From an uncultured delta proteobacterium (GTDB lineage: Bacteria > Desulfobacterota > Desulfomonilia > Desulfomonilales > Desulfomonilaceae): a DNA stretch of 64,000 nucleotides. The stretch covers positions 1,056,001-1,120,000 of the forward strand of contig CAWBKB010000001.1 in the NCBI GenBank assembly GCA_963789265.1, written 5' to 3'. Below, in pieces: positions 43,384-63,462 of the stretch. Positions within the stretch are counted from its first letter, which is position 1; every line of letters starts with the position of its first letter. The position numbers were made by a program, and so were the translations under genes. A model generated the notes under the pieces. That model had not been told where the DNA came from and did not search any database. It saw nothing but the letters and a program-made list of their open reading frames with translations.

Positions 43384-43501
43384 GGGGGCAGGTGTTTTTT
43401 CTTGACTTCCTTCCTTTCGCCCTGCACAATCCTGCTCACTGTGGAGTGGTGGAGCCCACAAGTGCTGCGATCTTATGCTGCAAAACAAAAGACCTAACCC
43501 C
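43384..43501. repeat. ~115-bp element, family G, copy 2
   Basis: Shares TTCCTTTCGCCCTGCACAATCCTGCTCACTGTGGAGTGG...CACAAGTGCTGCGATCTTATGCTGCAAAA with copy 1. Confidence 0.85.
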
Positions 43502-43520
43502 AAGATTCATACGGTCATGT

Positions 43521-45971: not shown

Positions 45972-46139
45972 GTTTGCCCCTCTCGCTGTTTCAAACTGTC
46001 AATGACCGGGTACGACTATCTGAGCATGTTCAAGAAATTGTGGGCCGGCGTTTTCTCCAGTGCTTCGGACGCAAATTCAGCGCTCCCCATTTGTAGAAAG
46101 CGTGTCCCACACTTCTCGAAGCCCCGGATGACTCTCATC

Positions 46140-46400
46140 TCACGCTGCCGGGAAACGACCCGACATGAGATTGTAGAGCCAGGCAAAGATAGCTCCACCA
46201 ATCAAGCCATCAAAGAACCCATAAATCAGTCCGATGATGCTGCCAATAGGACTAACGTGGTAGCCGATGTAGATGAGTCCAAGCAAGGTTCGGGCTCCAG
46301 AGGCCCCGTACAGCACGATCAGCCACCACGTGAGGACGAAGACACTCACTGCCCAGAAGATCCCACACGTCAGTGCGAATGCTTTCACATTCAGTTTCAT
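46140..46400 (-). CDS. Small membrane protein (family often annotated as holin-like)
   Basis: KLNVKAFALTCG..W...Y.GY..S.IGSIIG..YGFFDG...GAIFAWLYN. Confidence 0.7.
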   Translation of the reverse strand: MKLNVKAFALTCGIFWAVSVFVLTWWLIVLYGASGARTLLGLIYIGYHVSPIGSIIGLIYGFFDGLIGGAIFAWLYNLMSGRFPAA

Positions 46401-46809
46401 GATCCACCCCCGTTGCTTCCTGGTTCAGCGTTTCACCTGTTGTGATGAACTGACGGGAATTGTGCGGCGGCCTTTCCTCCTATACCCCATCTTCTAAGGC
46501 CAGTGTCCGCCACAGTCTCAATGAAAAGGCATCTTTGTTCGCGTTTGAGAGAATACTCCACGGCGCGTCCCCCGGTCAATTACAATCTCGCCTGTGCAGC
46601 AATGCAGAATGAAGTTGTAATTGGAGGAGGTGGGGTTCATCGGCTGGAAGGATTATTTTCGCATCTATGCTTGGAGTGAGCTAGAGCGACGAGCCGATGC
46701 GTTTACACTTTCCGCCTCTTGCCGCACGGATTCCCCGGCAAAATCCTTGACAAGAACCCGACAAACCTGGAGCGTATCACAATAAGAATCCAAAATATTT
46801 TTCTCCCGG

Positions 46810-48675
46810 GTGATTCAAATGAATAGCTGGCAAGACAAATATGCCGCTAAACTTATCTCAGCGGCGGAGGCAGCCCAGAAGATCAGGAATGGAGACAGAA
46901 TATATCTCGGCAGCCTATGCTCAGAACCCAAGACGATAATTCGCGCCCTGGAAGCATCCTCGGTTCAGGACGTAGAAATCGTGCAATTCATCGCGGGCTC
47001 CGAAGCATCTCGATTGGCCGCAGGTGGATGGGAGAGGTTCAGGATCAAGACCTTCTTCGTGGGAGGCGGAACAACCGATTCCGGGGCGATGCCCGAGTAC
47101 AACTATGTTCCGCTGTATCACTCTCAGATTCCATTCTTCTTCCGGAACCGTCGTATTCCAATCGATGTTGCCATAATCCAGGTGGCCGAGCCGGACCGTT
47201 TCGGCAGGTTCAGTCTCGGTATTTCGGTGGACTTCTCCATTGCCGCAGTTGAAGCCGCTCGCCTGGTCATCGCTCAGGTCAATCCATTGATGCCACGCAC
47301 CCACGGAGATACGTTTATTCAGCTAGACCAAATAGATCATTTGGTGGATGCTGCAGAGCCGCTGGGAGAGTTGCCGGAAGAACCGCTCGGAGAACGAGAA
47401 AAGACCATCAGCGCTTATTGTAGTGAACTTATCGAGGACGGTTCTGTTGTGCAGTTCGGCTTCGCGGGGATTTCCAGGGGCCTCATGGATTTTCTCAAGG
47501 ATCGCCGACACCTGGGCCTTCACACCGAAATATTCAGCGATCCGCTCATTGACCTTGTTGAATCCGGAGTCTTGGACAATAGCACGAAGAAACTGTTTCG
47601 GGGGAAATCCCTGGCAACCTCGTGCATGGGAACTCGGCGCCTGTACGATTTCGTCCACGACAATCCGGTAGTGGAATTCTATCCATCCGATACTCTTCTG
47701 GATCCCGGCTTGATAGCCTCCCACGATCGTATGGTGGCAGTTAACGTGGCTATGCAGGTAGACCTCAGAGGCCAAATTCGGCAAGGCAACCCGGCGTGGA
47801 CAGCCGTTGAGGGATCCGGAGGAGAGAGTGACTTCATGAGGGGGGCAAATCTGTCCAAAGGTGGCCGGTCAATCATTTGCATGCGATCCACGTCGTCCAG
47901 GAGCGGCAAGTCCAATATAGTGCCTACGTTTGGTCCCAAAGCTTCGGTCATGATGAATCGAGGGGATGCCAACTACATAATTACCGAGTATGGCATCGCA
48001 TACCTGGGCGGCAGGTCCATCCGTGAGAGGGCCATGGCGTTAATCGAGATCTCGCATCCGGATCACCGTGAAGGTTTGCTGAAGTCCGCCCGCGAAATGG
48101 GGTACGTCTACCCGAATCAGGTCTATTACAGAATTTGCTCACCTGAATTGCGGCGTCGTGTCCGCACTCAGCGAGTTTTCAAGGGCGGCATCAAGGGTAA
48201 TGTGAGAGTAATCAAGTCCACAGATGAATCCATGCTGCGGGACCTTTTCTACAACCTTTCCGAAGAATCGGTATATTTCCGTTACTTCACTCCCCGTCGA
48301 AGTATGCCGCATAAGAATCTCGAGCAATATGTAAATGTCACGGAGGAAGACGGGCTTTCGCTGGTTGTCACTATTGGTCCTAGAGAAGACCGCAAGATTG
48401 TTGCAGAAGCACGCTACATGATCAATCCGGGCGACCCGTACCCTGAGGCGGCGTTCATGGTTCATGAAGACTACCGGGGCCGCGGGATAGCAAGTGTGTT
48501 ACTCCACTACCTGATAGACGTCGCCAAGGAACGTGGCATCGGTGGATTTAGGGCTGAGGTTTTGATGTCCAATAGATCGATGATGAAGGTCTTCGAGAGA
48601 CTACCATACGTGCTTCACAAAAGGCTCGAAGAAAACATGCTGCATCTGCACTTCCAGTTCGATCAATTGAAATGA
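46810..48675 (+). CDS. Acetyl-CoA hydrolase/CoA-transferase fused to a GNAT acetyltransferase domain
   Basis: HLGLHTE, N...QVDL.GQ, GG..DF.RGA..S.GG, ITEYG; C-terminal S.Y.RYF, EAAF.V.EDY.GRGIA. Confidence 0.92.
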   Translation: MIQMNSWQDKYAAKLISAAEAAQKIRNGDRIYLGSLCSEPKTIIRALEASSVQDVEIVQFIAGSEASRLAAGGWERFRIKTFFVGGGTTDSGAMPEYNYVPLYHSQIPFFFRNRRIPIDVAIIQVAEPDRFGRFSLGISVDFSIAAVEAARLVIAQVNPLMPRTHGDTFIQLDQIDHLVDAAEPLGELPEEPLGEREKTISAYCSELIEDGSVVQFGFAGISRGLMDFLKDRRHLGLHTEIFSDPLIDLVESGVLDNSTKKLFRGKSLATSCMGTRRLYDFVHDNPVVEFYPSDTLLDPGLIASHDRMVAVNVAMQVDLRGQIRQGNPAWTAVEGSGGESDFMRGANLSKGGRSIICMRSTSSRSGKSNIVPTFGPKASVMMNRGDANYIITEYGIAYLGGRSIRERAMALIEISHPDHREGLLKSAREMGYVYPNQVYYRICSPELRRRVRTQRVFKGGIKGNVRVIKSTDESMLRDLFYNLSEESVYFRYFTPRRSMPHKNLEQYVNVTEEDGLSLVVTIGPREDRKIVAEARYMINPGDPYPEAAFMVHEDYRGRGIASVLLHYLIDVAKERGIGGFRAEVLMSNRSMMKVFERLPYVLHKRLEENMLHLHFQFDQLK

Positions 48676-49098
48676 TCTTTGGATGGCATTAGTCCGACAG
48701 GTGGAAAAATAAGATATATATCACATGCTTTCGATGTGTTATGGTAAGGGCCTTTTCTGCCCACAATTTCCGGACTTGTCAATTTCGGGCATGAGCTTCT
48801 TTGAAACTTTGTTGGCCATATAGGCCGAGGGTGGGCTGTTTAGTTCGTGCGTGCCGTCATCGAAGAAGCAGGTAAAAGCCAACACGGAAAGGAAAGAGAG
48901 CAAATCCAAGGTGGGCCCCATATAGTAGGTGCCCTCGTTATTGTGACCGCCTTCTGAGCCTTTACTTCAAGCCGTCATCTTTTTTCCAGGTTTCTTGAAC
49001 TGCGACCTAACCGTTTAACCCCCAGCCTGTGTTCCGCCCAGTCCCGGCTTGAACATTGCCGCATAGCAGTATATTCTTGGCCTGAAGGAGATGCCCCA

Positions 49099-50136
49099 AT
49101 GCCCATCACATTTGAAGCGCTCTACGATACGATGACCCGGATCCGAGCGGGAAAAAGAGAGGAAGTCCCCTTTGAGATCCGTACGGATCCCTTGACCGGC
49201 ACGACGGGACGCGTCTTCAACTTCCCCTATCAGCCCCCTAAAAGCCCCAATGCCGAAGACACTTTCAAGCGATCTGAAGGGATATTCTGTCCCTTCTGCT
49301 CGGAAAATATCGAAGACTCCACCCCTCGGTTCCCTGAGGAATTGATTCAGGAAGGAAAGATTCGCAAAGGAAGCGCGACCTTGGTTCCCAACATCCTTCC
49401 TCTGGATCGCTACGTGGGTGTAGCCGTTTTCTCTCCCCAACACTTCGTACGGATGGAAGAGCTGAAACCCGAAATGATGAGGGACGCATTTCTTGCCGTT
49501 CAGGAGTTCATCCGGAGGGTCTCCGGGGTTGACCCCAGGGTAGACTGCTTCTCCGTCAATTGGAACTACATGCCGCCGGCAGGTTCAAGCCTGGTCCACC
49601 CCCACCTTCAGGTCCTCTGCGGGGAGCGTCCTACGAACCACATGCGGCGACAGCTTGAAGGCGCAAACAGGTATTACCGTGAAAATGGCAGAGAGTTCTG
49701 GGACGACTTCATTCGCGAGGAGAAAGAAAGGGCGTCCCGCTACCTCGGAGAGATAGGCCCGACCTTCTGGACCGTAGGCTATGTTCCCATGAGTCACATA
49801 CCGGACGTCTGGTGCATCTTGCCCGAACAGAAATCCCTGGTTGGAGTGGGAGAGGAAGCGCTGAACTCCTTCTTGGTAGGCCTTTCGACCGTACTGACCT
49901 ATTACCGCACCCTGAACCTCTTCAGCTTTAACGTATCGATCTTTTCATTCAGGTTCGAAGAGCACTTTCGAGTCAACGGCCGAATCCTTCCCCGTTTCGC
50001 CCTGAGAGAAATAGGAAACAGCGATTACACCTTTCTTCAGGCCGTACATAAGGAGAATGCCAGCCTCTACGCGCCTGAGTCGGTCTGCCGGCAGATAAGA
50101 GAACAAGACTTCGGGACTCCCATCCCAACATCCTGA
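49099..50136 (+). CDS. Galactose-1-phosphate uridylyltransferase-like (GalT/HIT) protein
   Basis: EIRTDPLTG, CPFC, WNY.PPAGSSLVHPHLQ. Confidence 0.8.
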   Translation: MPITFEALYDTMTRIRAGKREEVPFEIRTDPLTGTTGRVFNFPYQPPKSPNAEDTFKRSEGIFCPFCSENIEDSTPRFPEELIQEGKIRKGSATLVPNILPLDRYVGVAVFSPQHFVRMEELKPEMMRDAFLAVQEFIRRVSGVDPRVDCFSVNWNYMPPAGSSLVHPHLQVLCGERPTNHMRRQLEGANRYYRENGREFWDDFIREEKERASRYLGEIGPTFWTVGYVPMSHIPDVWCILPEQKSLVGVGEEALNSFLVGLSTVLTYYRTLNLFSFNVSIFSFRFEEHFRVNGRILPRFALREIGNSDYTFLQAVHKENASLYAPESVCRQIREQDFGTPIPTS

Positions 50137-50441
50137 TCGATTGCCGTGAACCGCGCGTTCAAGCGGGATGCTCCCTACTTGCTGGTTTACTAATCCTCCA
50201 CATTGGGGCAGACATGGGCGTAGAAGATCCGTTTCACACGTGAAGAGCGAGCCGGCAGTAGCAAAAAGCTGTGCGTATCGGGTAGAGGGCCGGCCGAGGT
50301 CAACTTAGGGGTCCATTACCAGACGGACAGAGCTGAAAAGCGTGAATGGCCAGAGCAACAATCAGCCGCAGCCGGGGAAGTATTGAAGATCATTACTTCA
50401 TCAGACACATGCCCGTGATGATTGAACAGATTGAAGACCTG

Positions 50442-50540
50442 TTAGCCAAGAATACTCTCAAGGATACCGGATTCGGCCAAGATAACCATGGCTATCAACA
50501 TGATAGCCAACATGAAGGTCTCGGCAAGGATTCCCTTCAT
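50442..50540 (-). CDS. 32-aa hydrophobic small protein
   Basis: MKGILAETFMLAIMLIAMVILAESGILESILG*; strong RBS GAGGAGG 6 nt before ATG. Confidence 0.55.
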   Translation of the reverse strand: MKGILAETFMLAIMLIAMVILAESGILESILG

Positions 50541-50901
50541 GGCAAACCTCCTCGCGCCCAATTGATTCATTCTTTTTAAATAGTTGGACTGGAGATTTTG
50601 TAATCCGTTAAAAAATGAAGAGTGGTCACAACGTGAATGCTGCCGGCCTTACCAGGCACAATCAAAATGAAGAGTCAGTATCCATGGCTTTGATATATTT
50701 GCGGTACAGACGCACGGAGGAGAGTAACTACTCAAAGTTGAAGGCCGCAGTGAAGGTCTTAGTACTGTAGAACAGCGCCATCTGGCTCTTTACAAGGAAG
50801 CCGCCGTTTTCTTGCCGAAAGACCGATCAATGCCTTATGCTTGGAGATACCGGGGGATGAGCGGCATATTAGTCGCCAGGGATATGGGCAAGAAATCCGT
50901 G

Positions 50902-51090
50902 AGTTCCGGGCACACCGTGCTTAACCGCGCTCTTCCTTCTTCTTTGGTCCCAACTTTTTTTCTTCGGACTAACCGCCCAATCAGCATTTTTTCAAGAAGG
51001 CCGATGATCTTGCCGGTGTCAGAAGAAGAAGAAGAAGAAGAAGAAGAAGAAGGCCTGCTGCCGCAGATTGCCTTTTTGAACAGGAATGAG
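50902..51090 (-). mobile_element. Internally deleted RAYT-like transposase remnant, copy D, containing (GAA)10
   Basis: Minus-strand frames read QKGNLRQQAFFF... joined to DTGKIIGLLEKML..RLVRRKK; terminus TTAAGCACGGTGTGCCCGGAACT. Confidence 0.7.
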
Positions 51091-51112
51091 CGGCCGATTC
51101 GGCCCCCGTTGG

Positions 51113-51697
51113 TCAGTGCATCCTGCGTGAGGGCCGTGATTTGATGGCAACCCTCCATTCTCCGGTTCTGACTTTTCTTTGAATTTCTCGAATGACTCGA
51201 TCGGCTATGTGCTGCGGTTCCATGTTTAGCGATTGCAAGGATGTGTTACATCTGTCACAGTGGAAAACGGTCTGATATTCAGAATATTCAGGCATATAAC
51301 CAGTAACTTCTAACTCACAAGTTGGGCAAAAAGGAATCAGACCCAATATTTCGTTCCCTTCCCAGTGCCAACGCCAGTTGATCCCAAGGAACTCATCTGA
51401 AGTATAAGCATGCCAGTTGAAAAACGAAAGCCATAGCGTTCTCAGGATCACAACAACAAAAAGCAGGAAGGATAAGGCTCCAATGAGGATTATCCAGTTT
51501 GGGATTAAGGAACTCTCTAAGGCATAGTGTATAAGAGACCAGAAGTAGCTCTCGACCGAAGGCCATACCCCGAGACTATTACCTATGAGCCAAACGGCTA
51601 GCCCGATGATGGCACTGGCAATCACTTTGCTCCAGACAGGATCAGCCCAAATCGTCTTCAGTTTTTCCGTCCAGGTCACCGATTCGCTCCCTCTCAT
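51113..51697 (-). CDS. Hypothetical membrane protein with C-terminal Zn ribbon
   Basis: W.DPVWSKVIA, two TM helices, FCPTC...CDRC. Confidence 0.75.
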   Translation of the reverse strand: MRGSESVTWTEKLKTIWADPVWSKVIASAIIGLAVWLIGNSLGVWPSVESYFWSLIHYALESSLIPNWIILIGALSFLLFVVVILRTLWLSFFNWHAYTSDEFLGINWRWHWEGNEILGLIPFCPTCELEVTGYMPEYSEYQTVFHCDRCNTSLQSLNMEPQHIADRVIREIQRKVRTGEWRVAIKSRPSRRMH

Positions 51698-51707
51698 CTA
51701 CGCCAGT

Positions 51708-51972
51708 CGAGCGGACATCATACAGCTTAACCTCCCATTCGTTTTATCTTTCCGCGGCTTCTTCGTCCCGTGCACCCGGGCCCAGCATATGCTCAAAGTG
51801 GCCGGTGAACTCTCCGGTGTCAAGCTAAAGAAGTCTGCTGCTGCCGATTGCCGATCTGGTGGATGTGCTGATGGTAGTAGCTGGCAGTAACCAGTTGAGC
51901 AACCGGTCCTATATTCCCTCTGGCACATTAAGGGACTTCTCGGCGACAATTATAAGTAGTGTGCCCAGAACT
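51708..51972 (-). mobile_element. Internally deleted RAYT-like remnant, copy C (~265 bp)
   Basis: HIHQIGNRQQQT joined to DTGEFTGHFEHMLG; degenerate inverted termini GCGGACATCATACAGCTTAA / TTATAAGTAGTGTGCCCAGAACT. Confidence 0.7.
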
Positions 51973-51987
51973 CGCCCGCCCGACTGG

Positions 51988-52473
51988 TTATGGTGTTTCT
52001 ACAGTTTTTCCAGGTCTCGGTGGGGGTGGTGCAGGCATGTCAGGTGAACCCTCGGGCACCTCTGCGATCACGGCGGTTATCTCTGCCCCATCTTTGATAT
52101 TGAGATACTCGGCCAACGGGTCACGTGAGACCAGCTCCAAGATTCGCGCGTTTCTGTGTCCACCGCGGTATATCCAAGCCAATACAGACTTATTGTTTAT
52201 CTCGATCACCTTCGAACAAGGTGAAAGATGATTACCGTCCTCGTATCTATTCACGGCTCGTCCGCGCTCCTGCGCCATGCATCGATACTTACTCTCATTC
52301 GGAGGTGAATATAGTGAGTCGTCAGCCAAGACCATATTGAAAGTACCCGGAATGCACTCACGGATTTGCGGAAATTCCTCTTCGTGATCTGCGCACACTT
52401 GTTCCCAGTGCGTAGAGGCGTGACGGCTCCCATGCTGGCAATATGTTCCATTCACTATCACCTGTCGCCCCAT
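51988..52473 (-). CDS. Hypothetical protein, possibly CTP-dependent riboflavin kinase (DUF120)-like fold
   Basis: IPGTFNMVL resembles PGTLN; ILELVSRDPLAEYLNIKDGAEI resembles ELIAP..LR..L.L.DGD.V; RBS GGAGG. Confidence 0.55.
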   Translation of the reverse strand: MGRQVIVNGTYCQHGSRHASTHWEQVCADHEEEFPQIRECIPGTFNMVLADDSLYSPPNESKYRCMAQERGRAVNRYEDGNHLSPCSKVIEINNKSVLAWIYRGGHRNARILELVSRDPLAEYLNIKDGAEITAVIAEVPEGSPDMPAPPPPRPGKTVETP

Positions 52474-52494
52474 TTGTACCTCCGACCTCTCATT

Positions 52495-52758
52495 TGCGAA
52501 CACCACCGTTGATTGTTCCCGCTGCCCTTACTTTTTCCCCGGCTTCTTTCGTCGGCGCACTCGGCCCACCATTTCTTCAACGTAGCCGCTAAACTATTCC
52601 GTGTCGGGTATAGGAAGGTCTGCTGCCACCGATTGCCTCTTTGGAGTGACGTGATGGGGGCAGCCAGCGCTGACTACCCGAGAAATCTACCCCATGTAAT
52701 ACTCTTTGCCAGTGCCGGACTTCCGAACCAATAATTAACAGAGGTACACCCAGGAATT
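52495..52758 (-). mobile_element. Internally deleted RAYT-like remnant, copy B (~264 bp)
   Basis: PHHVT(Q)RGNRWQQTF joined to GYVEEMVGRVRRRKKPG; right terminus AATTAACAGAGGTACACCCAGGAATT. Confidence 0.72.
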
Positions 52759-52835
52759 ACCAGCGTATTAACCTTTTTGCTGTTTGAGTGTGACCTAGTG
52801 GTCTCGTATCATGGCAGTTTCTCATTATGGATGAG

Positions 52836-53588
52836 TCACACAGCGGGTGCGGATGATCCTTGCCCGGATGCCGCCTGCCCAACCTGTGGTAGTTCGTCCC
52901 AGGTTCGCCCTTCGAGCAACCGACCGGCCTTCTTCTTGTTGGTGCCGCCCCACTGCTTGAAGAAGAACGGCACATAGGCCCGGCGACATTGGTCCCTAAG
53001 ATCTGTGACCCACTCCGCTTTCATTGACCGCGCCTTTGGGCCGGACTCGCCGCCGACGATCACCCAATCAATTCCGTCGAGGTCGATGTTTGGCAGTGGA
53101 CCGAGAAGGGGCTCCAGCGAAAGAAACTTTAGGTGAGCTTTCGTCGCGCGGAGTTCATCGATTCGCGCGCGGTAACAGTCCATCTCAACGCTTACACCCA
53201 TCCAGATGTTCGGGGTCCACGTGAGCTTGGAATCGAGCTCGGCCAACCTGTTTGAACGCTTCGTGAGCACTTGGAAACGGTGCCAGTGCGCCCGGCGCAT
53301 GACTTCGAAGACCTTCTTCACGTAGGAGAGGGGCACGTCCTCGTGGAACAAGTCACTCATCGAGTTGACGAACACGGCCTGCGGTTTCTTCCACCTCAGC
53401 GGCAGTTCGAGCATGTGGAGTTGCAGAGTGACGTCGAAACCGTTGACGTAGTTGGCCTGGCCCATTGCCTGGAGCCTTTCAGTCATGCGTTCGGCATAGC
53501 AGTGCGTGCAGCCGGTGCTCACCTTGGAGCAACCAGTGACAGGATTCCAGGTGGATTCAGTCCACTCAATTGACGACTTCTTCGCCAT
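52836..53588 (-). CDS. DUF5131 / phage Gp37-Gp68 family three-Cys-motif protein
   Basis: SIEWTESTWNPVTGCSKVSTGCTHCYA, FVNSMSDLFH, FQVLTKR, SLEPLLG, WVIVGGESG, FFFKQWGG. Confidence 0.95.
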   Translation of the reverse strand: MAKKSSIEWTESTWNPVTGCSKVSTGCTHCYAERMTERLQAMGQANYVNGFDVTLQLHMLELPLRWKKPQAVFVNSMSDLFHEDVPLSYVKKVFEVMRRAHWHRFQVLTKRSNRLAELDSKLTWTPNIWMGVSVEMDCYRARIDELRATKAHLKFLSLEPLLGPLPNIDLDGIDWVIVGGESGPKARSMKAEWVTDLRDQCRRAYVPFFFKQWGGTNKKKAGRLLEGRTWDELPQVGQAASGQGSSAPAV

Positions 53589-53646
53589 GCGTATTGATTG
53601 CCCCTATCGTCCTTTATCGGTCTTGCATTCGCTTACGAACCATCAA

Positions 53647-54746
53647 CTACTTGTCAAGAAAGCGCAATATCGCATAGTCAGGGTACGTGTTGGACCGACG
53701 CTTCCTCCCGTCAGCTTTCAGTGTTTCCACAGCAATCCGGCCACAAGCCTCGTCCTGCTTAAGTGCGGCTGTCATATGCTTCTTCAAAAACGCTGTCTTG
53801 TCTTCGACGAACCTGCGCACCTCCAAGCAGGTGATAACTCCTTTTGCTCTGAATTGATCCCGAAGTTGGTCGATGAGCGTCGATGTGGTGTCGACATCGA
53901 ACAGGTACTCGCTGGTTAGGATTCGTGGCATCAGAGAATCTGAACTCGCCGTTTGGGTCGATTCGCCACATTGCCTCCTTCATCTTGAGATGCCCAAGTT
54001 CATGGTTGGTGGCGAAGAACAGATAGTATTGCGTGCGGTCTTGCCGATCGCGCATCTCGAAGTACCGCACGTACTCGGCCACACGTTCGAGATTTGACTG
54101 GTAAAGCTCCCTGAGCTGAACCACCCGGTTGCCGACACCCTTAGCGATGCAAATCGCTTCGACGGTTCCAAACGCCTCGACAATGTGCTGCACCACCTTG
54201 TCCTCTGGATGCTCGAGGAACCGGTTGATCGCGTCGACCATGAACGTAATGAAGACCTCGCAACGCTTGTATTTCAGCAGCCGTTCGATCAAGGAGAATG
54301 GGATACCTGAAAATCCGAAGGGATCGATGAACGCGAACGTTGGAGCGAGGGTGCCGCTACCCTCTTTGATGCAGTCCATCATCACCGCGAACTTCTCGTG
54401 GAACCGGCCGGTCTCCGGTATCACTTTGAAGTGAGCTGGGGTGTCCAAGTTTTCGAGCTCCTGCTTGAGATGCTCGATGCGGTCTTGCCGCTCATCGATG
54501 AACCAGAAGACAACTTCGTGCTGTATTGTCTTGCGATGGTTGAGTGCCACATTGAGAGCGATCAAGGGCGAACCGGCCTCACCCCCCGCGTAACGCCCAG
54601 GCCCACAGAATCCGTCGATGTAGACGATGCGGCTATGCCAAGTACTCGAATATTGGGAACCACGCCGCAAGGTACCGGCCCAGGATTTCATGCTTGGCTC
54701 TCGTGTGCGGGTCCATTACCCACAAGGTGTCTTTGGGCGTGACCAT
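53647..54746 (-). CDS. tcmP: Three-Cys-motif partner protein TcmP (apparent +1 frameshifts at ~54648 and ~53905)
   Basis: MVTPKDTLW..DPHTRAKHEIL.RYLAAWFPI, YIDGFCGPG.Y, FAFIDPFG, YYLFFATNH..G..KMKEAMW..DP.G. Confidence 0.88.
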
Positions 54747-55172
54747 ACCTTTCCCTATTCCCCCTTCTCCCGGCGCGAGAGCGATCCCCCCTTTGCTTTG
54801 GCTGTTGAGACTCTTCGCTGTAACTGGCTAACTATACGTGTGTCCAGTGCGCGGTCCAAGTACTTGAAAGCACTTCTTTCTCGATCTTGAGGTAATAGCC
54901 AGCCTCCAACGCACTGCGCAGATAGTCCCATAATTCCCGAACCACGGTGTCGATGTTTCTTCTCTTCTCAGATGAACTCATTCGCGGGAGAGGACCCGAC
55001 CATGCACACCGGTCACTCCGATGGCTCCTCAGACCCAAGTTGGTGGCGTCGCGGTTGCTGACAGGCAGCCACTGAGCACAACAGCCCCTATCATGTGGAA
55101 GGAATGGATTCTTCGGACCTTTTCTGAGGCTACGTCCCCGCATGCTCAAAGTCAATCATGAATTTGTCCTTG

Positions 55173-55335
55173 TCCCGGATAAACCATACCTCAGATGTTC
55201 CATTGGTCTTATTTGCCCCTGACTTTTTTCTTTAGAGCACCCGCCCCAGCATTTTCTCAAAGTGGCCGATGAATGCGTCGGTGTCAAGCGGAAGAAGAAG
55301 GTCTGCTGCCGCCGAAACTGAGAGGAGTGAAGTGT
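55173..55335 (-). mobile_element. Internally deleted RAYT-like remnant, copy A
   Basis: FRRQQTFFF joined to PLDTDAFIGHFEKMLGRVL*RKKSG; terminus GAGGTATGGTTTATCCGGGA. Confidence 0.72.
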
Positions 55336-55383
55336 CACCAGCGACCCATATGAGTCGAGGGCAAACTTGACCTCTTCTTCCGG

Positions 55384-56971
55384 CTAGCCCAAGGGGTGCC
55401 ATCCACTCCACCCGACGCCTGTAACCTGCCAAGTGTGGCGGCGTAATCCGTCGCGCCATTGGCTAAAGACTTCTAGCCGACCATCGGCATTGCGAGATAC
55501 TTCGAACGTATTCATGTCGCCTTCCAAATTCTCCCAGGAACCCCATCCGCTCTGGGTGTGCCATATGTGGCGTAGGCTGCCATCCCCCCATTTGGCAAAA
55601 ACCTCAAGCCGACCGTCAAGGTTTTGTGCCACGCGAATGAAATCTACCGACCCTCCGAGTGTATGCCAGTCGCTCCATCCCGTTACGGTCCTGCTATCCT
55701 GCCATATGTGCCTCACGGCTTTGTCGTTTCCACACCCAAAAACTTCTAACAGGCCGTCGCGGTTTAGCAGGACTTCAACAGATTCAATAGCGCCACCTAA
55801 GCTGGCCCACTCACTCCAACCGCCTGGACAATTGGGATCTTGCCATATGTGCCAGAGGGCGCCGGCCTCGTCTCTCGCAAACACCTCCAACCGACCGTCA
55901 GCATTCAGTTTGGCTTTGAAATCTCCCAGGCTTGGGACTGACAGGCTCTCTCCTTTGCCGGAATCTGTGTTCTCAGGCGACTTGCACATGCGTCGTTTCC
56001 TCGTTCCGAGCGAAAGAGTTTTCTTGCCATCGGATATTACATTTTCCGCTTTACCGAACTCGCGGCGTTGGTCAAAGTATGATCTGAGCTGCAATGTGAC
56101 TTCATCAGAATCGATGTCACAGGATATTATGGTGTAACCATTAATGTAATCTCGGGATTGATACAAGCACCCGCAGTGACTCATGACTGCTGAAGCAGCC
56201 ATATGCTCCACACGTTCCGACTCCGGGTCATGGTTATGCCCGAAAAGGAGCACGTCAAACTCGCTGAAAGCACGCCGCTTCGTACCTGCCATGTTCCATA
56301 GGTGATAGCCAGGGGAAGGAATGATGCATGACGCCTATTAGCAGGTCACAGTCTTTCACAGCCTGTAAGGCCGAATCAATCTGGCGCTCTCCTATGCTAA
56401 GGTTTCCGTAGTCAGCGTTCCCGGGTCTTCCGGTGGCTCGCCAGCAGGAGTTGAGGGAGCATAGACCCACTGCGGCACCATCAATGTCGATGGTGTAAGA
56501 GCGGTACAGTGGGTTTTTTGCACTCAGCCCCCTCGAAGGATGAGAGTCAATGAAGCGGTTGAATTGGTCCAATCTGTGCAGGTAATAGGGTTTGGTCGGG
56601 AAAGAATCGATAATGCGATTAATGTCATGGAAGTTTTTGCAACCTTCTCGCACCCCCGCGTCCAGGGTCTCGTCGACTTGGTCTCTGTCTATGTCATGAT
56701 TGCCGGGAGCTAAGAAAAATAGGCCCGGTTCCAGCCCCAGCACCTTCACCACGGGGGGCACGAGCAGATTATAGGCGACTTCAAAATCGTCGGCTACGTT
56801 GCCTGCTTGAACAAGGTCACCGGAAAAGACAACAAAACTGGGGTGGATGCCTTCCTCTGTTTCGAGCTTCGCCAAGTCAGCAATTAACGCGTCAATGACC
56901 GTCCGGACGTTTGTATCCCACGTCTTGCCATAGTGGAGGTCCGATAGATGAACAAAAGATATTTTCTCCAC
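55384..56971 (-). CDS. Calcineurin-like metallophosphoesterase fused to PLL-type lectin beta-propeller repeats (apparent +1 frameshift at ~56288)
   Basis: HLSDLH, SGDL, PGNHD, MHH, GHNH motifs split across two ORFs; four N.DGRLEVF...L.H.WQ...W..W..LGG repeats. Confidence 0.82.
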
Positions 56972-57306
56972 GTGCTCAACCCTCCCTCCTCAGCGGTGGT
57001 CGGAATGCGTCGCCCGATCACAAGAGGCATTTAACGTTCTTGAATCGCGAAGATGAAGTCCAACCGCGGTCGTCGAGGGTTGTCCCAGGCCGCTTCCATC
57101 CGCAAGACTGGCGATACTCGTAGACCCCGGGAGAGCAAGCCCTTCCAAACGTCCCTACTGTCTCCCTTACCCGTCCAACTGCACATGGGACATTGACCTG
57201 AGACGGCACCTTCTTCGGAACCGGAATATGAGCGAAAGATTTAATACCCCGCAGCACGTCCACTCACCTTTGGGGCCCTTTGGGGGCACTGGATCCCGCC
57301 CTCAAC

Positions 57307-57342
57307 AAAAACAGGGGAGCCGAGACTTCTCAACTCCCCTGT
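57307..57342 (-). terminator. Rho-independent terminator-like hairpin downstream of the tRNA fragment
   Basis: Minus strand ACAGGGGAG-TTGAGAAGTCTCGG-CTCCCCTGT followed by a T-run. Confidence 0.55.
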
Positions 57343-57359
57343 GATATTAGTGTCTTATC

Positions 57360-57398
57360 TGGCGTCCCCAAGGGGATTTGAACCCCTGTCGCCGGCTT
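57360..57398 (-). other. tRNA-Glu 3'-end fragment (att-like site), copy 1
   Basis: Minus strand AAGCCGGCGACAGGGGTTCAAATCCCCTTGGGGACGCCA: T-arm, acceptor 3' strand and CCA; no 5' half. Glu assignment is from resemblance only. Confidence 0.75.
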
Positions 57399-57405
57399 CT
57401 GATTT

Positions 57406-57630
57406 TCAAAGCAGCGCATTGAACTGGTCCACAGTAAGCCCGACATCGTGAATTATGGCTCTTAGCGTTCCTTTGGCCACCTCGTTGTGGTCCGGAACCA
57501 CGATCCTTCGGTATGGGTAGCTCGACTGTCTCAGGACAATGTGGCTCCCTCGTTGATGATCCTTCTCATAGCCGAGTTTCCTTAGCGCCCGCACAACCTC
57601 GCGGCCGGACAGTTGGGGCAGCCGTGTCAA
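57406..57630 (-). CDS. hicA: HicA family mRNase toxin
   Basis: LSGREVVRAL...QRGSH...VPDH.EV..GTLRAI. Confidence 0.93.
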   Translation of the reverse strand: MTRLPQLSGREVVRALRKLGYEKDHQRGSHIVLRQSSYPYRRIVVPDHNEVAKGTLRAIIHDVGLTVDQFNALL

Positions 57631-57839
57631 ATGGCTACCTCGACAAGTTCTTCGGCTATAGGAGGCGGAATAGGCTCGTCATGTGCGGCAAGACTTTCAA
57701 GATAAGCGGCTATGGCTTCCTTGGCGTTTTCGATGGCCTCCTGCCGAGTGCGCCCTTGAGAGATACACCCTGGCAGTGACGGCACTCGTACCACGAAGAC
57801 CCCATCTTCATCCTGTTCAATTAAGATTCGGTATTTCAT
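57627..57839 (-). CDS. hicB: HicB family antitoxin (short form)
   Basis: EQDEDGVFVV.VPSLPGCISQG.T..EA..NAKEAI. Confidence 0.93.
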   Translation of the reverse strand: MKYRILIEQDEDGVFVVRVPSLPGCISQGRTRQEAIENAKEAIAAYLESLAAHDEPIPPPIAEELVEVAI

Positions 57840-57967
57840 TTTCTGCCTCGTCAATCCAGGCAAGTGCGGTAAACCGGTAAGTCGTGGAAGAAATGCGTTA
57901 GAAAAAAGAGGAATCAGGACTAAGAAGCCCAGATTTTCCGGTCTCTTCGCTCTTTAATGTGTTGTTG

Positions 57968-58000
57968 TGGCGTCCCCAAGGGGGCTTGAACCCCTGTCGC
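57968..58000 (-). other. tRNA-Glu 3'-end fragment (att-like site), copy 2
   Basis: TGGCGTCCCCAAGGGGGCTTGAACCCCTGTCGC; 31/33 identical to copy 1. Confidence 0.7.
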
Positions 58001-58319
58001 GAGAGCGAGAGAAATATCCCATAGTTTCCAAGGGTTGCGCTAATCGCCTTTCCTGATGAGAATTTCACAACTTCCCGATTCATGCCATGAAACTTTTTAG
58101 CACTATTTTTCCTTTTTTCAGAAGATTTTTTCCAAGAAAGGCTCCCACGGACTGGTACCTTGCCCTCCCTTCTCGAATCGTGACCGCGAACGTCATTTTT
58201 TCTCAAATCGACGGAGCTTACTCAGATATCTCTTAAGGCTGCCCGCATCATCTTAGAGTCGTCCGCAAGCCCATGGTCTCAGGGCTTCCAGCTCTCTCGC
58301 CACAGCCCCATCCGCTTGC

Positions 58320-59466
58320 CTAAATTCCTATTTCCCGTGCCACTACTACACGCATGATGTCGGGAGTTCCTCCTCCGATGAGGGGAAAATAGGAGTCGCG
58401 AAGATATCGTTCAACCGGGTATTCCGTCATGAGACCGTATCCGCCGAAGATGGACAGCGCCATTGAGCAGATCTTGTTGGCGGCCTCGCAGACGATGATC
58501 TTAGTTAGTGCAGCCTCTTTTGAGACTTTTTCGCCTCGATCTGCTTTGCGAGCGGCATAATACAGGTACAGCTCGGCACTCTCCAACATAGCCAGCATGT
58601 CCGCGAGTCGGAACCGCACTGCCTGAAACTTGCTGATAGGCATCCCAAACTGCTCTCGTTCTTTGGCATATTTGAGCGCCGCCTCGTATGCCGCCTTTGC
58701 CAATCCCAGGGAAGTTGCTCCAGTCATGATCCGGTCCGCTTCGAGGTGTGGTATCACCGCGAGGAGGCCGGTATTTTCTTTGCCGAGCAAATGGTCTTTA
58801 GGAACCACGAGGTCCTCAAAAACAAGTTCCGCTGTATCTGAACAATGGGTGGTAAACTTGCTCAGCCTCTTACCCACGCGAAACCCTTTCATGGCGGTAT
58901 CGACCAGGAAAACCGAGATACCCTTCATTCCTTTTTCCTGGTCCGTCTTGGCGACAACAGCGACGAAATCCGCTATCGTGCCGTTGGAAGTAAAAATTTT
59001 AGTACCATTGAGGACGTACGAGTCGCCATCACGTACGGCTCGGGTGCGAATTGCCGCAGCGTCGGAACCTGCCCCGGGCTCGGTTAAAGCAAATGCTCCG
59101 ATCTTTTCACCACGCAGCGCAGGAACCAGGTAGTTTTGCTTCAGATTGTCGGACCCAAAGTGATAAATGGACAGAAGAGGAACTGACGTCGCCATTGCAA
59201 CCGTTGCAGAAAATCCAGCCGATACTTTGGCTAACTCTTCCACCAGAATGCAGTGATAAGTGTTCGGCTGGTCCACGCCTGCTCCGCCGTACTCCTCAGG
59301 GAACTTCACTCCAAGAAAACCCAGTTCTCCCATTTCTCGGATGAGATGGCGCGGCGGTTCCCCTGTTTCTGTCCAGCTCTTCAGCAATCGGAGCAAGCCG
59401 TTCCTGTACGAACCGGGCGACGTGCCGGCGAAATTCTTCAGCTTCCCATGATAAACCGAGATCCAT
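58320..59466 (-). CDS. Acyl-CoA dehydrogenase (apparent +1 frameshift at ~59370)
   Basis: ALTEPGAGSD, NGTKIFTSNG, R.QFG..I..FQ, FGGYG; the true N-terminus MDLGLSWEAEEFRRHVARF lies in another frame. Confidence 0.92.
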
Positions 59467-59552
59467 TTCACATCCCCTTCTTCTCTACCTATTGGCAGCG
59501 TCCAGACAGGAACCTTGTGGCTTTGCTTCTGAAATATATGACCGGCATCGAC

Positions 59553-59831
59553 TCAACCTCCGCCCATGGTGATGAAGGATATTCCCAAGATGTCCCCTTC
59601 ATTTAGCCCGGCGGCCAGCTTTCCCGGAAGAAAGTTCGAATCCACACCATTGACTGTTACTGCAATGTCAGGGTAGATCTCTTCCAGCTCAGCGTTGACG
59701 AGCTTCACTTGCATGACTGACTCAATGGCTGCCAGGCCGGACATAAGGTTTGGATTCTCGTCCTCGAGGAGTATGCTGTCGGTCTTCAATTTAGTTCCGG
59801 TAAAGTTGGATTTGACCGAAATTTTTATCAT
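59553..59831 (-). CDS. MoaD/ThiS family sulfur carrier
   Basis: C-terminal GGG, VNG, L.EGD; adjacent to a ThiF-family gene. Confidence 0.8.
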   Translation of the reverse strand: MIKISVKSNFTGTKLKTDSILLEDENPNLMSGLAAIESVMQVKLVNAELEEIYPDIAVTVNGVDSNFLPGKLAAGLNEGDILGISFITMGGG

Positions 59832-60625
59832 CACGCCGAACCTCCCCATTGATCTGAAGTTGAATCGATTTCCCGGCACACGGTGCAATCCGCTTTTTGA
59901 TTTACTTTGCGATAAGAGAAGTTCATCGATTCTCCGTTAAAGAGGATCAATCTTCCAACAAGTGACGGCTCGGCTCCCGTGAGTATGTTGAGAGCCTCCA
60001 TCGCCTGGATGCAGCCGATGACACCCGGGGTGGGGCCCAGCACAGGAAAAGGGCTTTCGGATGGGGTCAAATCGTGGGCTTCGTAAATGCATTGAAGGCA
60101 CGGTCCCTTTCCCGGGGCTACCACGGAGGCTATGCCTCTAACGCCCAGGACTCCGCCATGCACGAGAAGCTTACCTTGTCTGCAGCATTCCCGGTTTGCT
60201 GCAAGTCGTGTCGGAAAGTTGTCCAAGGCATCGATCACGATATCAGCCTCGCCTACATATTCGCGGAAGCTATCCCGGGCTATTGCTTCGTTCACTCCGA
60301 CCGTTTCAACTTCGGGATTTACATTTCGTAAGAGCTGTTCTGCAACAACAGCTTTAGGTTTGCCTAGATCTTCGGTTGCGTAAAGCAATTGCCGATTGAG
60401 GTTGGGAAGATCGACCCGGCCATGATCGATTATCGTCAGCCGTCCAATGCCTGCTCGCACAAGGTACTGCGAGCATACACTTCCAAGGCCGCCCGCTCCC
60501 AGCAGGAGAACACGGGAACGCCTCAACCGTTGTTGGCCTTCCAGGCCGAAGCCCGGAAGGATCATCTGTCTTGCATACCGCTGCCAACGGGTCACCTCGT
60601 CAGGATTGTCGGATTCCACGGCCAT
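59831..60625 (-). CDS. HesA/MoeB/ThiF family adenylyltransferase
   Basis: RYARQ, GAGGLG, NLNRQ, DN...R, PCLQC, CTVC. Confidence 0.93.
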   Translation of the reverse strand: MAVESDNPDEVTRWQRYARQMILPGFGLEGQQRLRRSRVLLLGAGGLGSVCSQYLVRAGIGRLTIIDHGRVDLPNLNRQLLYATEDLGKPKAVVAEQLLRNVNPEVETVGVNEAIARDSFREYVGEADIVIDALDNFPTRLAANRECCRQGKLLVHGGVLGVRGIASVVAPGKGPCLQCIYEAHDLTPSESPFPVLGPTPGVIGCIQAMEALNILTGAEPSLVGRLILFNGESMNFSYRKVNQKADCTVCREIDSTSDQWGGSA

Positions 60626-60700
60626 TGCTTGCCCTGAATTGTCTGATTCAGACAGAGGTGAACTCCCTGGTTGAAGGAATTAATGACCAGTTAAATTTCA

Positions 60701-62986
60701 TTATCTCTTCATTCCCTTTTGCTCCTGTAAGGCCCAGTAGATTTTCTCAGGGGTTGCCGGGAGAGTCTTGAACCAAATTCCTGTGGCGTCCTTGAGAGCG
60801 CTCACGATTGCGCTCGGAGTGCTCACAATGCAGCCTTCGCTGGCCTCTTTGGCGCCGTAGGGCCCGTCAGGATCTTCGGTAATAATGTCTATCACTTCTA
60901 TGTTCGGGACATCTGTCGAGAGAGGCATCTTGTAATTGGTAAGGCTCGCGTTTCGTGTTCTTCCCCCGTCCATGATGAATCCTTCATAGAGTGTCTGGCC
61001 CAGCCCCTGTACCGCTCCTCCCTGATTTTGGGCATGAACGTTGAGGGGATTCAAGGGGCGGCCGCAGTCATGCGCAATGATGGTGTTCTCGCAACGGGCA
61101 ACTCCGGTCTCAAGGTCAACCCTAACTTCAGCCAACTGGGCGGTGAAGCTGTACGACGTGCCCGGGTTGCCAAGCCCTTTGTCCCAGTCGTACCGTTCGA
61201 TGCCGTATTGCGAGTATCCCCTTCCCAGAATAACTGCCCCGGACCCTGAGTAGCAGGCTATTTTGGCGAGTTTCCCGAAGGGCATTGACAACTCGGGACG
61301 ACCTTTCACGAATACCTTTCCTTCTCGGAACTCGATATCATCGGGCTGGGTTTTCCATTCCCTTGCTGCAAATTGAGCAAGTTGGTTTTTGACATCTTGC
61401 GCAGCTCTCTGGGCCGCCATTCCGGCGAGTATGGTCACGCGACTTCCGTAGCTACCCGGGTCACAGGGGGTTACTGCCGTATCTACCCTCTTGATATTCA
61501 CGTCCTCCATCCGGACGCCCAACTCTTCGGCCACGATCTGAACGAGCACCGTGTCAGATCCCTGGCCGCAGTCCGTCGCTCCCGTCAGGTAGTTTACCGT
61601 TCCGTCCTCACAAAGCCTGACAATAGCCGCGCAGGATTGATGACCCAATTGTCTGGCCCCTCCAAGGTACGAAGCCGCTGAAAGACCCACTCCTCTGCCG
61701 GCTTTGGCTCCGTTGCCTCGGCGTTTCCAGATTTCTGTTTTCTTCAGCGTCTCCAAGCCCTCTGTGAGGCCGCAACTTTTTACGGTAATCTCGTTGACGG
61801 TTTCATAGGGGGCTTTAATGGCATTCTTCAGACGAACATCAATCGGATCGATGCCGAGTTCTTCGGCGAGCATGTCCATTTGGATCTCCGCGGCAAAACG
61901 GGTGTGGGTTGCGCCGTGTCCCCGCATAGCCGCGCTGACAGGATGGTTTGTAAAGATTCGGTATGCATCGTACCTGAAATTGGGCAGCTTGTACGGGAGT
62001 GTTGTCATTGCGCCGCTCAAGTAGAGCGTCAGCGGGCCGATGGCAGTGTATGCTCCGCCCTCCGCTATCGCTTTTTGCTGAAGCGCGAGCAGAGTGCCGT
62101 CCTTCTTCATGCCCATCTTGCTGTGGATAATGAAGTTGTGTCTGCGACGAGCCGTCTTGAGCACTTCCTCCATACTGTAAACGAATTTCACCGGTCTGCC
62201 GGTCCATTTGGAAAAGAGAACCGAGCAGAAATCACCGGCCACGGAGTCATTCTTGGTGCCGCCGAAGCCCGCGCCGACGAACGGCTGAATAATTCGTATC
62301 TTATTCAGGGGTAGGCCAAAACAGGCTGCCATGTGGCGATAAACAAAATAAGGGCTCTGTTTTGCACCCCAAAGCGTAATCCCGCTGGAGTCGTACATGG
62401 CAACGGCCGCCGGAGGTTCGAGATATCCCGTAAGAACTCTCCCTGTTTCAAAACGGTCCTCACGCACCATGTGCGAGTCGGCGAATGCCTTTTCCACGTC
62501 ACCGAAGTCCATGTGGAATTCCCAGCTCCGGTTATTTTGCACGTAATCGTGCACGGCCGGAGCACCCGGTTTCATGGCCTCTTCGGGATCGAATACTCCG
62601 GGAAGTTCCTCATAATCCACGTGGATGAGCCCCGCGGCTTCTTCGGCGGTTTCTTCATCCACTGCCGCGACCGCGGCCACAGCTTCTCCCAGGTAACGAG
62701 CTTTGCCCACAGCCAAGGGAGGTTCGTCTCGGGTCTGAGGCATGAAACCCCAAGTCCATCCGTGAAAATCTTTTCCAGTACAAACTGCTTTCACACCCGA
62801 ATGACTTTCTGCGCGACTTGTATCAATTTTGAGGATTTTAGCGTGGGGATGCGGGCTGCGCAAAATCTTGCACCAGAGCATCCCGGGAAAAGAAAAGTCA
62901 GCGGCGTATTTTCCGCCGCCGGTGACTTTATCAAGGGCGTCTACCCGGGGAATCGGTTTTCCTATTATTGAACATTCTTGCATCAC
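60701..62986 (-). CDS. Xanthine dehydrogenase family molybdopterin-binding subunit
   Basis: RVDALDKVTG, RSPHPHA, GAGFGG, AMRGHG, GQG, GSYGSR, QGLG, GAKEASE. Confidence 0.95.
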   Translation of the reverse strand: MMQECSIIGKPIPRVDALDKVTGGGKYAADFSFPGMLWCKILRSPHPHAKILKIDTSRAESHSGVKAVCTGKDFHGWTWGFMPQTRDEPPLAVGKARYLGEAVAAVAAVDEETAEEAAGLIHVDYEELPGVFDPEEAMKPGAPAVHDYVQNNRSWEFHMDFGDVEKAFADSHMVREDRFETGRVLTGYLEPPAAVAMYDSSGITLWGAKQSPYFVYRHMAACFGLPLNKIRIIQPFVGAGFGGTKNDSVAGDFCSVLFSKWTGRPVKFVYSMEEVLKTARRRHNFIIHSKMGMKKDGTLLALQQKAIAEGGAYTAIGPLTLYLSGAMTTLPYKLPNFRYDAYRIFTNHPVSAAMRGHGATHTRFAAEIQMDMLAEELGIDPIDVRLKNAIKAPYETVNEITVKSCGLTEGLETLKKTEIWKRRGNGAKAGRGVGLSAASYLGGARQLGHQSCAAIVRLCEDGTVNYLTGATDCGQGSDTVLVQIVAEELGVRMEDVNIKRVDTAVTPCDPGSYGSRVTILAGMAAQRAAQDVKNQLAQFAAREWKTQPDDIEFREGKVFVKGRPELSMPFGKLAKIACYSGSGAVILGRGYSQYGIERYDWDKGLGNPGTSYSFTAQLAEVRVDLETGVARCENTIIAHDCGRPLNPLNVHAQNQGGAVQGLGQTLYEGFIMDGGRTRNASLTNYKMPLSTDVPNIEVIDIITEDPDGPYGAKEASEGCIVSTPSAIVSALKDATGIWFKTLPATPEKIYWALQEQKGMKR

Positions 62987-63462
62987 GATTCCCCTCCTTC
63001 ACTGATCATCTCGGCGGCAGCTTCTATGGATTCGATAATTTTCGTATAACCGGTGCATCGGCAGAAGTTGCCGGCTATGCCCTCGCGTATGTCTTCTTCA
63101 GTCGGGTGCGGGTATTTCTTCAGTAAGTATGTGCCCGAGACAATCATACCAGGCGTGCAGAAGCCGCACTGGGCTCCTCCGTGCTTCACGAATGCCTCTT
63201 GAATCGGATGCAATTTTTCTTTTGTCCCGACCCCCTCGACGGTCACAATGGATTTTCCGTGCGCCTCGGCTGCCAAAACGAGGCAACTATTCACTGTGAC
63301 ACCATCCATTATGACAGTGCACGCTCCGCACTCGCCCATTCCGCACCCTTCTTTGGTACCTGTAAGATGTAATCTCTCCCGAATCATCTCGAGGAGCGTT
63401 TCCGACGGAGCAACCTCAATGCTCTCCAGCTTTCCGTTCACGGTACACTCGATTTGTTTCAT
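62983..63462 (-). CDS. Xanthine dehydrogenase family (2Fe-2S) subunit
   Basis: GCGMGECGAC, QCGFCTPG, NFCRCTGY. Confidence 0.95.
   Translation of the reverse strand: MKQIECTVNGKLESIEVAPSETLLEMIRERLHLTGTKEGCGMGECGACTVIMDGVTVNSCLVLAAEAHGKSIVTVEGVGTKEKLHPIQEAFVKHGGAQCGFCTPGMIVSGTYLLKKYPHPTEEDIREGIAGNFCRCTGYTKIIESIEAAAEMISEGGES

Follow-up and report, generated by a model that had tools for sequence, protein, structure and literature searches.

We analysed a 64,000-nucleotide stretch of DNA (hereafter the window; C1:1056001-1120000 of genome G000, an uncultured member of the Desulfomonilaceae whose assembly comprises 6.06 Mb in 9 contigs) and found four degenerate repeats, S1 to S4, interleaved with accessory genes between 50901 and ~55391. 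With a probability of roughly 70%, these four spacers are relic, non-autonomous deletion derivatives, with the architecture of miniature inverted-repeat transposable elements (MITEs), of a parent that resembles an insertion sequence (IS) and belongs to the TIRtron/TIRYT type, in which a gene like those of the REP-associated tyrosine transposases (RAYTs; REP, repetitive extragenic palindrome) is enclosed by terminal inverted repeats (TIRs). The array pattern itself is real, and on this reading the genes between the repeats, here called cargo, are neighbours of the elements and not their passengers. The derivative family arose by one deletion in a TIR-bounded parent; it has spread, it is clustered, it is old, and its enzyme has been lost from G000. 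The original prediction for this locus had described internally deleted RAYT remnants with one junction, in one orientation and beside accessory cargo, all of which we recovered, but the gene-capture mechanism that it attached to them was not supported. The comparison set consisted of 41 related genomes (genus 6, family 24, sister family 16), mostly draft assemblies with a completeness of 76-100%, of which G001 is the closest (about 90-93% identity); genes were called by longest-open-reading-frame (ORF) heuristics.

The four repeats are homologous. A MAFFT alignment gave a mean column identity of 59% with a common core, and a repeat search returned one family of 4 copies of 40 nt at 65-78% identity. 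All of them lie on the minus strand between accessory genes and are co-oriented. An nhmmer profile built from 71 derivative copies matched S4 at 55102-55391 (E 1.1e-59), S2 at 51673-51928 (E 2.9e-46), S3 at 52490-52713 (E 6.2e-45) and S1 at 50893-51090 (E 9.5e-40), so that the nucleotide model proposed earlier recovers all four spacers claimed at E 1e-39 to 1e-59. Element ends were taken from the alignment to full-length parents and differ by 1-6 nt from the coordinates first given. S2 (51705-51973) is a complete deletion derivative of 269 bp with both ends aligned to the ends of the parent in genome G069, and it is composed of the left terminal repeat, ~29 N-terminal codons, a junction at ~51820-51832, ~31 C-terminal codons with the stop, and the right terminal repeat. 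S3 (52490-52759) is likewise complete at 270 bp, with its junction at ~52603-52615 and both ends aligned to the parent; the N-terminal piece is best preserved in this copy (tblastn E 0.016). The two complete copies of ~265 bp with degenerate inverted ends that had been described are therefore 269 and 270 bp long, and their ends match the parental TIRs. The other two are incomplete: S1 (50901 to ~51110) is 5'-truncated, covers profile positions 61-235 and has its 3' end at 50901 aligned to the parental right end, and S4 (~55171 to ~55391) has a decayed 5' part, a junction at ~55285-55297, and a well-kept C-terminal piece (tblastn match 55291-55217) and right end. Since S2 and S3, which are of MITE size (70-300 bp) and non-coding, retain both parental ends, the architecture is that of a MITE. 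Self-complementarity inside the copies is weak (11/12 nt in S2, 8 nt in S3). In G000 as a whole the profile found nine matches in 6.06 Mb, four of which fall within the 4.5 kb of this array; the spacers are co-oriented and clustered, as had been claimed, and not singly scattered or randomly oriented.

Stops and frame breaks occur in the window copies, and a frame spanning the junction is open in some of the copies; a small conserved ORF across the junction was rejected because that frame is broken in S1 and S3. S1 also carries a run of some ten TTC units (which read GAA in the plus strand) at ~51018-51058, exactly at the deletion junction; this microsatellite would have grown from the junction itself, because the other copies carry TTCTTC there.

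All four repeats represent one and the same internal deletion in a gene for a RAYT-like Y1/HUH transposase, with N- and C-terminal codons joined out of frame. The consensus of the 71 copies runs from a start codon and ~29 N-terminal codons through a frame change into ~31 C-terminal codons and a stop. On intact genes of other genera in the family, the 71-copy profile splits into two pieces with ~490 nt between them. At locus L099, the N piece (4007-3912) matched profile positions 13-109 with E 5.5e-20 and the C piece (3422-3308) matched positions 115-229 with E 2.2e-19, and the two surround a 216-residue frame that was matched at E 9e-86. The missing ~490 nt correspond to about residues 30-191 and, by the L099 translation, include the HUH motif and the tyrosine of the Y---NP signature. 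When the full-length protein of locus L050 was compared with the 64-kb window by tblastn, the five best matches all fell in S1-S4 (E 0.016-0.2) and covered residues 17-45 and 206-230. The reported fusion of a RAYT N-terminus to its C-terminus was thereby borne out at the DNA level by two-piece profile matches and by tblastn, with the N piece decayed in S4 and the first part missing in S1. The same junction was found in 9/9 copies of G000, which points to a single deletion as their common origin. Internal deletions that arose independently in this gene are present in G047 and G041, together with many N-only and C-only fragments, and the family is therefore prone to decay.

Intact genes in related genomes encode proteins of 216-241 aa with the same N- and C-termini as the remnants. 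Full-length relatives met the Pfam Y1_Tnp model (PF01797) at ~50-56 bits against a cut-off of 23 (55.9 for L050 in G036:C127), whereas the window remnants are too short to score, and the L099 translation shows the HUH motif and the class-2 Y---NP signature. With the NCBIfam model NF047646 for REP-associated tyrosine transposases, two full-length relatives scored 55.6 and 58.7 bits, below the cut-off of 80. Homology between intact copies within one genome is confined to 750-790 bp: 753 bp in common at 97% identity in G069, 767-789 bp at about 90% in G014, 753 bp at 92% in G047 and 757 bp at 95% in G057. The shared unit consists of the ORF with ~60 nt upstream and ~45 nt downstream, and the flanking genes differ. 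Because homology stops at the terminal repeats in all four genomes, the transposon moves without neighbour genes; for the same reason, one-sided flank capture of the ISCR/IS91 type was not found in these genomes, where homology ends at both repeats. The TIRs of the parent measure ~26 nt in G069 and ~30 nt in G057, and the right repeat overlaps the stop-codon region at the 3' end of the gene. The start of the repeat in G057 fits the word GGGGWSAS, and in G069 and the window copies the corresponding word deviates from it by one or two bases. The number of protein matches to the parent type reaches 48 in one genome and 27, 23, 22 and 18 in others, many of them stop-broken; this multi-copy parent therefore behaves like an insertion sequence. 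Target-site duplications were neither seen nor expected. A further observation concerns the left ends: in 4/6 intact copies inspected (among them L078 and L099 in G069 and L090 in G057), 7-8 nt outside the left terminal repeat copy the repeat's own first bases, which suggests a target word mimicking the left end.

By Pfam and protein searches, G000 holds no intact transposase of this type and only fragments of it, and in G006, another genome of the genus, no match to an intact one was found. The decayed fragments of G000, detected by protein search on the minus strand, are located at C1:416799-422131 (three within 5.3 kb), C1:578722-578847 and C7:233321-233539; they hold the N-terminal 42-73 residues or the C-terminal 36 residues. 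All six Pfam Y1_Tnp matches in G000 are of other types. The autonomous RAYT with matching ends that had been postulated is thus missing from G000, whereas intact parents with aligned ends exist in other genera, as in G069. Since no intact transposase is left, the copies in G000 are probably immobile fossils. As a side observation, G000 carries two nearly identical genes for ~375-aa RAYT-like proteins with a long C-terminal extension (C4:127895-128560 and C1:91866-92531), which share about 29% identity with the parent from which the window elements derive and represent the longer type that the available portion of Quentin et al. (2018, PMC6006769) equates with most TIRYTs.

BLAST searches with S4 detected the derivative in 13/41 genomes, including 6/6 of the genus and 12/24 of the family, in several of whose genera it is present, and in none of the 16 genomes of the sister family. 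The copies are clustered, with 12 within 67 kb of G006:C20 and at least 16 within 60 kb of G002:C1, and the clusters sit in plastic accessory regions. Every element shares the strand of its region (53/53 at E<=1e-4, two weak opposite-strand matches with E 5e-4 and 9e-3 falling outside that threshold). Neighbouring ORFs lie on the element strand in 38/53 cases downstream and 37/53 cases upstream, against a local background of about 70%, which indicates that the uniform orientation belongs to the elements and not to element-gene pairs. Intact copies, too, form clusters with a single orientation in G057, G069, G014 and G047. Among the derivatives, 3' truncations are frequent (profile end positions 92-287), and paralogous copies are 65-85% alike with short identical runs.

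The arrays of G006:C20 and G002:C1 show synteny at about 92-95%, interrupted by many indels, and most elements of the common blocks are present in both. Elements at orthologous sites are therefore old and predate the split of these two species of the genus. Along the G006 array, neighbouring elements are ~0.5-12 kb apart, and the intervening DNA holds TRAP and ABC transporter operons, a molybdoenzyme, oxidoreductases, regulators of the GntR, AraC and IclR families, opposite-strand genes and three IS transposases. Most synteny breakpoints (18-19/24) lie away from elements. Two orthologous elements change from diverged to conserved sequence within their own length, one near profile position 20 and the other near 60, and such different positions do not fit one fixed crossover site.

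These observations can be combined in the following model. The parent would have been one RAYT-like Y1/HUH gene (~216 aa) between TIRs of ~26-30 nt, of which one ancestral copy would have lost about codons 30-191 and kept the terminal repeats, the start region and the gene 3' end. The resulting ~270-bp derivative would then have multiplied, presumably mobilised in trans by intact copies. Clusters may have formed by local, strand-specific reinsertion of a single-strand transposition intermediate; we infer that local reinsertion is the likeliest cause of the clustering. Insertions would be tolerated in dispensable accessory DNA, and later indels, IS insertions and recombination may have truncated elements and replaced cargo, which would leave copies in the intergenic gaps of plastic regions, with one orientation per region. 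A plastic region with block replacement fits the cassette-like facts, and a dedicated capture enzyme is not required.

All large ORFs between 51113 and 56971 lie on the minus strand, in agreement with the earlier statement that the cargo points one way. The genes at 51113-51697 (194 aa, no family match) and 51988-52473 (161 aa, with only a sub-threshold match of the CTP-dependent riboflavin kinase kind) have no homologue in 5/5 same-genus genomes searched. Of the claim that cargo starts 10-25 nt after an element end, S3 (17 nt) and S2 (8 or 29 nt, depending on the start codon) provide examples, but the ORF after S4 (54832-55155, minus strand) is doubtful; S1 has no gene downstream on the minus strand. 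The gene at 52836-53588 encodes a DUF5131 protein (Pfam PF07505, 337.8 bits), component B of the PADLOC candidates PDC-M30/M41 (E 7.9e-123), and its homologues, at 50-66% identity, occur in 3/5 genus genomes in other contexts. Next to it lies the TcmP-like partner PDC-M30A (53647-54691), which scored 184.3 bits with NCBIfam TIGR04474 against a cut-off of 53 and covers positions 43-295 and 306-379 of the 381 in the PADLOC profile; because it is spread over two overlapping frames (53759-54691 and 53647-53931), this gene is frameshifted near its C-terminus. The two overlapping ORFs at 55384-56971 (238 and 302 aa) match only the first ~300 positions of the ~1000-aa phosphoesterase profile PDC-S60/DS8 and represent a truncated or rearranged anti-phage defence gene; the second ends in FG-GAP/beta-propeller-like repeats. 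The cargo is thus accessory and in part defence-related, as had been supposed, with TcmP and DUF5131 matching PADLOC candidate PDC-M30 beside the truncated PDC-S60/DS8-like phosphoesterase.

A leader-like stretch follows S4 on the minus strand (55002-55170), with 80-84% identity to the arrays of G001, G002, G004 and G006 and to C1:2412117-2412455 of G000 itself; together with the right half of the element, the segment 55002-55270 recurs at the same identity in these four relatives' arrays and at C1:2.412 Mb. Elsewhere the homology extends past this leader for more than 1 kb, into a gene of the choloylglycine-hydrolase family, whereas in the window it breaks off at ~55001 and gives way to the TcmP/DUF5131 pair. 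The unit of element, leader and hydrolase gene occurs in different surroundings in G006/G002 and in G000/G001/G004, and the neighbours of the element-hydrolase-element block in G004 differ from those in G000/G001. At the counterpart of the window locus in G001, the flanking genes are present but rearranged, and ~2.2 kb with one element fragment correspond to 8.7 kb in the window; a cargo order fixed in relatives that lack the spacers was accordingly not what we found. In G001, C17 and C21 contain homologues of window 46727-48687 and 58311-63000 twice, at ~90-93% identity and in the same relative order, which may reflect a duplication or two strains in one assembly. Further along the window, a tRNA-like 3' end (T-arm, acceptor and CCA) occurs on the minus strand in two direct copies that are 94% alike (57360-57392 and 57968-58000) around hicA/hicB (57406-57863), with a hairpin and T-run nearby at 57311-57342 on the same strand; ARAGORN called no tRNA in the window. 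The segment 57243-57395 recurs at 80-91% in G002 (once inside an element array), G004 and G005, and the repeats at 57360-58000 resemble an attachment site present in duplicate, or else the 3' end of some unrecognised RNA.

Several findings weigh against the reading of the spacers as relic deletion derivatives. Synteny blocks end within 100 nt of an element in 5/24 cases in G006 and 6/24 in G002, where 1.4 and 2.0 were expected (p 0.016 and 0.012), which means that the elements are not wholly passive. The sole polymorphic site studied is a replacement and not a simple presence or absence: the G006 element at 279026-280358 (L057) has no counterpart in G002, which carries ~130 nt of unrelated sequence with a G/C-rich palindrome in its place. 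A clean empty site of the ~270-bp unit was not found in the comparison of G006 and G002, and movement of this unit alone is therefore deduced from how it is built and how many copies exist. Conservation is higher in the centre of the element than at its ends, the reverse of what a MITE under selection for mobility usually shows. That two cargo genes start 8-29 nt past an element end is a strikingly close fit if insertion was random. A switch near 1.95-2.0 Mb of contig 1 is suggested by GC skew and gene-strand bias, yet the copies on both sides are on the minus strand; the skew is weak.

As side observations, the L057 element of G006 is interrupted by a gene for an IS4/5-type transposase (268 aa, opposite strand). 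In the window, gene orientation turns from plus to minus at ~38000-50000, and the cumulative GC skew peaks near 42 kb, a feature that is only local at contig scale. According to PMC6006769, Y1 elements pass through single-strand circles and insert into the template of the lagging strand. No simple relation of element orientation to replication was apparent here, given the inferred switch at 1.95-2.0 Mb against the uniform minus orientation on contig 1 and the weakness of the skew.

An explanation that we regard as unlikely takes the elements as immobile, dispersed direct repeats, at which general recombination deletes cargo or exchanges it for related DNA from outside, so that a cassette-like turnover would need no enzyme of its own. 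The breaks between diverged and conserved sequence inside two orthologous elements agree with it, as do the enrichment of breakpoints at elements and the frequent 3' truncations, and the uniform orientation could represent the survivors if inverted copies cause harmful inversions. However, paralogues that are 65-85% alike with only short identical runs are poor substrates for homologous recombination, and most breakpoints lie elsewhere than at elements. Such recombination explains turnover, but not the origin or the clustering of the copies.

Less probable still is the mechanism of the original prediction, an integron-like array in which a Y1/HUH transposase acting in trans captures units of element and gene, cuts them out and inserts them again, as IntI does at attC. 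The strict co-orientation (53/53), the strain-specific cargo with its two genes lacking homologues in five genus genomes, the presence of toxin-antitoxin and defence-candidate genes, the recurrence of the element-leader-hydrolase unit in different surroundings and the modest breakpoint enrichment at elements would all suit such a system. But intact parents move alone, with homology ending at the terminal repeats in four genomes, and the cargo lies outside these repeats. Breakpoints inside elements fall at different positions (~20 and ~60), and 18-19/24 lie away from elements altogether; cargo blocks reach ~12 kb and are multi-gene, with operons, regulators, opposite-strand genes and IS elements. 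The enzyme that should act is missing as well, no intact transposase of this type being present in G000 and none being matched in G006. For the integron integrase IntI (TIGR02249, cut-off 265 bits), 0/5 genomes passed, the best score being 106.9, and no match or recombinase stands beside an array, so that a classical integron was rejected. No conserved hairpin of the attC or REPIN type was found; for 27 near-complete copies RNAalifold predicted no consensus pairing, whichever strand was folded, and the ends show only 8-12 nt of self-complementarity. As no Rfam family reached its gathering score in the whole window (two sub-threshold chance matches lie in 48000-60000) and there is no consensus fold, a structured RNA or riboswitch was rejected too.

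A bolder form of the same thought is a long shot: the arrays could be the worn trace of Y1-driven single-strand gene shuffling, with TIRtron ends as recombination sites and activity where intact copies persist. If this were true, it would constitute an integron analogue built on an HUH enzyme. An exapted regulatory module, in which the transposase promoter and start region drive or tune the downstream gene, is very improbable, for although two cargo genes begin 8-29 nt beyond an element end and have intact ribosome-binding sites, and the core is conserved across genera, no minus-strand sigma-70-type promoter was detected inside S1-S4 (the region gave 6 sites, with 4.6 expected), no conserved fold on either strand and no Rfam match were found, downstream ORFs lie on the element strand at background level (38/53), and S1 and the C3 copy have no gene downstream.

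If the spacers are relic deletion derivatives of a TIR-bounded element, they bear on how gene-less repeat families arise. RAYT-like genes are usually single-copy, domesticated partners of REP/REPIN repeats. The RAYT relative described here is a multi-copy IS with a deletion derivative that carries both gene ends, and because both ends are retained, the derivative is a still legible stage on the way from an autonomous Y1 element to a repeat family without a gene, which could help to test the origin of REP/TIR repeat families. Strict co-orientation together with clustering is a computationally visible signature of local, strand-specific insertion. For annotation, the locus is a warning that cassette-like repeat arrays between accessory genes need not represent gene capture.

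Among known systems, integrons and clusters of attC sites lacking an integrase (CALINs) likewise show co-oriented repeats interleaved with strain-specific accessory genes, including toxin-antitoxin pairs. They differ in that no IntI scored over the cut-off in 5/5 genomes, no attC-type fold was seen, the repeats here are what is left of a gene and measure 200-270 bp, cargo blocks often contain several genes and breakpoints are not fixed. The 'peel and paste' elements of the IS200/IS605 family (IS608, ISDra2) share the Y1/HUH fold, the lack of a visible target duplication and an orientation-biased insertion. Their ends are distinct subterminal hairpins, whereas the elements described here end in TIRs, and the parent protein has the class-2 Y---NP signature.

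REP/REPIN-RAYT systems also combine a Y1 transposase gene flanked by inverted repeats with gene-less derivatives in intergenic DNA. REPINs, which are short doublets that fold into hairpins, rely on a RAYT that is present in one copy and inherited vertically. In contrast, the window derivative is without a conserved hairpin and carries both ends of the coding sequence, its parent is multi-copy, and the NCBIfam model for REP-associated transposases was matched below cut-off (55.6-58.7 vs 80 bits). Among the papers listed in a literature search on RAYTs and REPINs, none contained the term 'internal deletion'. With MITEs, the elements share a length of 269-270 bp, parental terminal repeats at both ends, the lack of coding capacity, many copies, a position in intergenic gaps near coding sequences and the origin in one internal deletion. 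They are unlike MITEs in having a Y1/HUH and not a DDE parent, no target-site duplication and a centre that is better conserved than the ends; the copies are clustered and strictly co-oriented, not dispersed, and their mobility as a unit is presumed.

A TIRtron is a RAYT-like gene closely flanked by TIRs, a TIRYT (Di Nocera et al. 2013, PMC3733652), and the repeats of many, though not all, published cases carry the word GGGGWSAS, according to the available portion of that paper, in which no deletion derivative is described. In the available portion of Quentin et al. (2018, PMC6006769), most TIRYTs are placed in a subclass with a C-terminal helix-turn-helix (HTH) domain, and genes of class 2, with the signature Y---NP, are usually of low copy number. 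The parent described here differs from these in occurring, like an IS, in many copies, which are 90-98% alike and give as many as 48 protein matches in a single genome, and in its 216-aa protein without the C-terminal HTH domain of most published TIRYTs, and the window holds only gutted derivatives. What it shares with TIRtrons is the organisation of the parent, a RAYT-like Y1/HUH gene closely flanked by terminal inverted repeats, the right one of which overlaps the 3' end of the gene.

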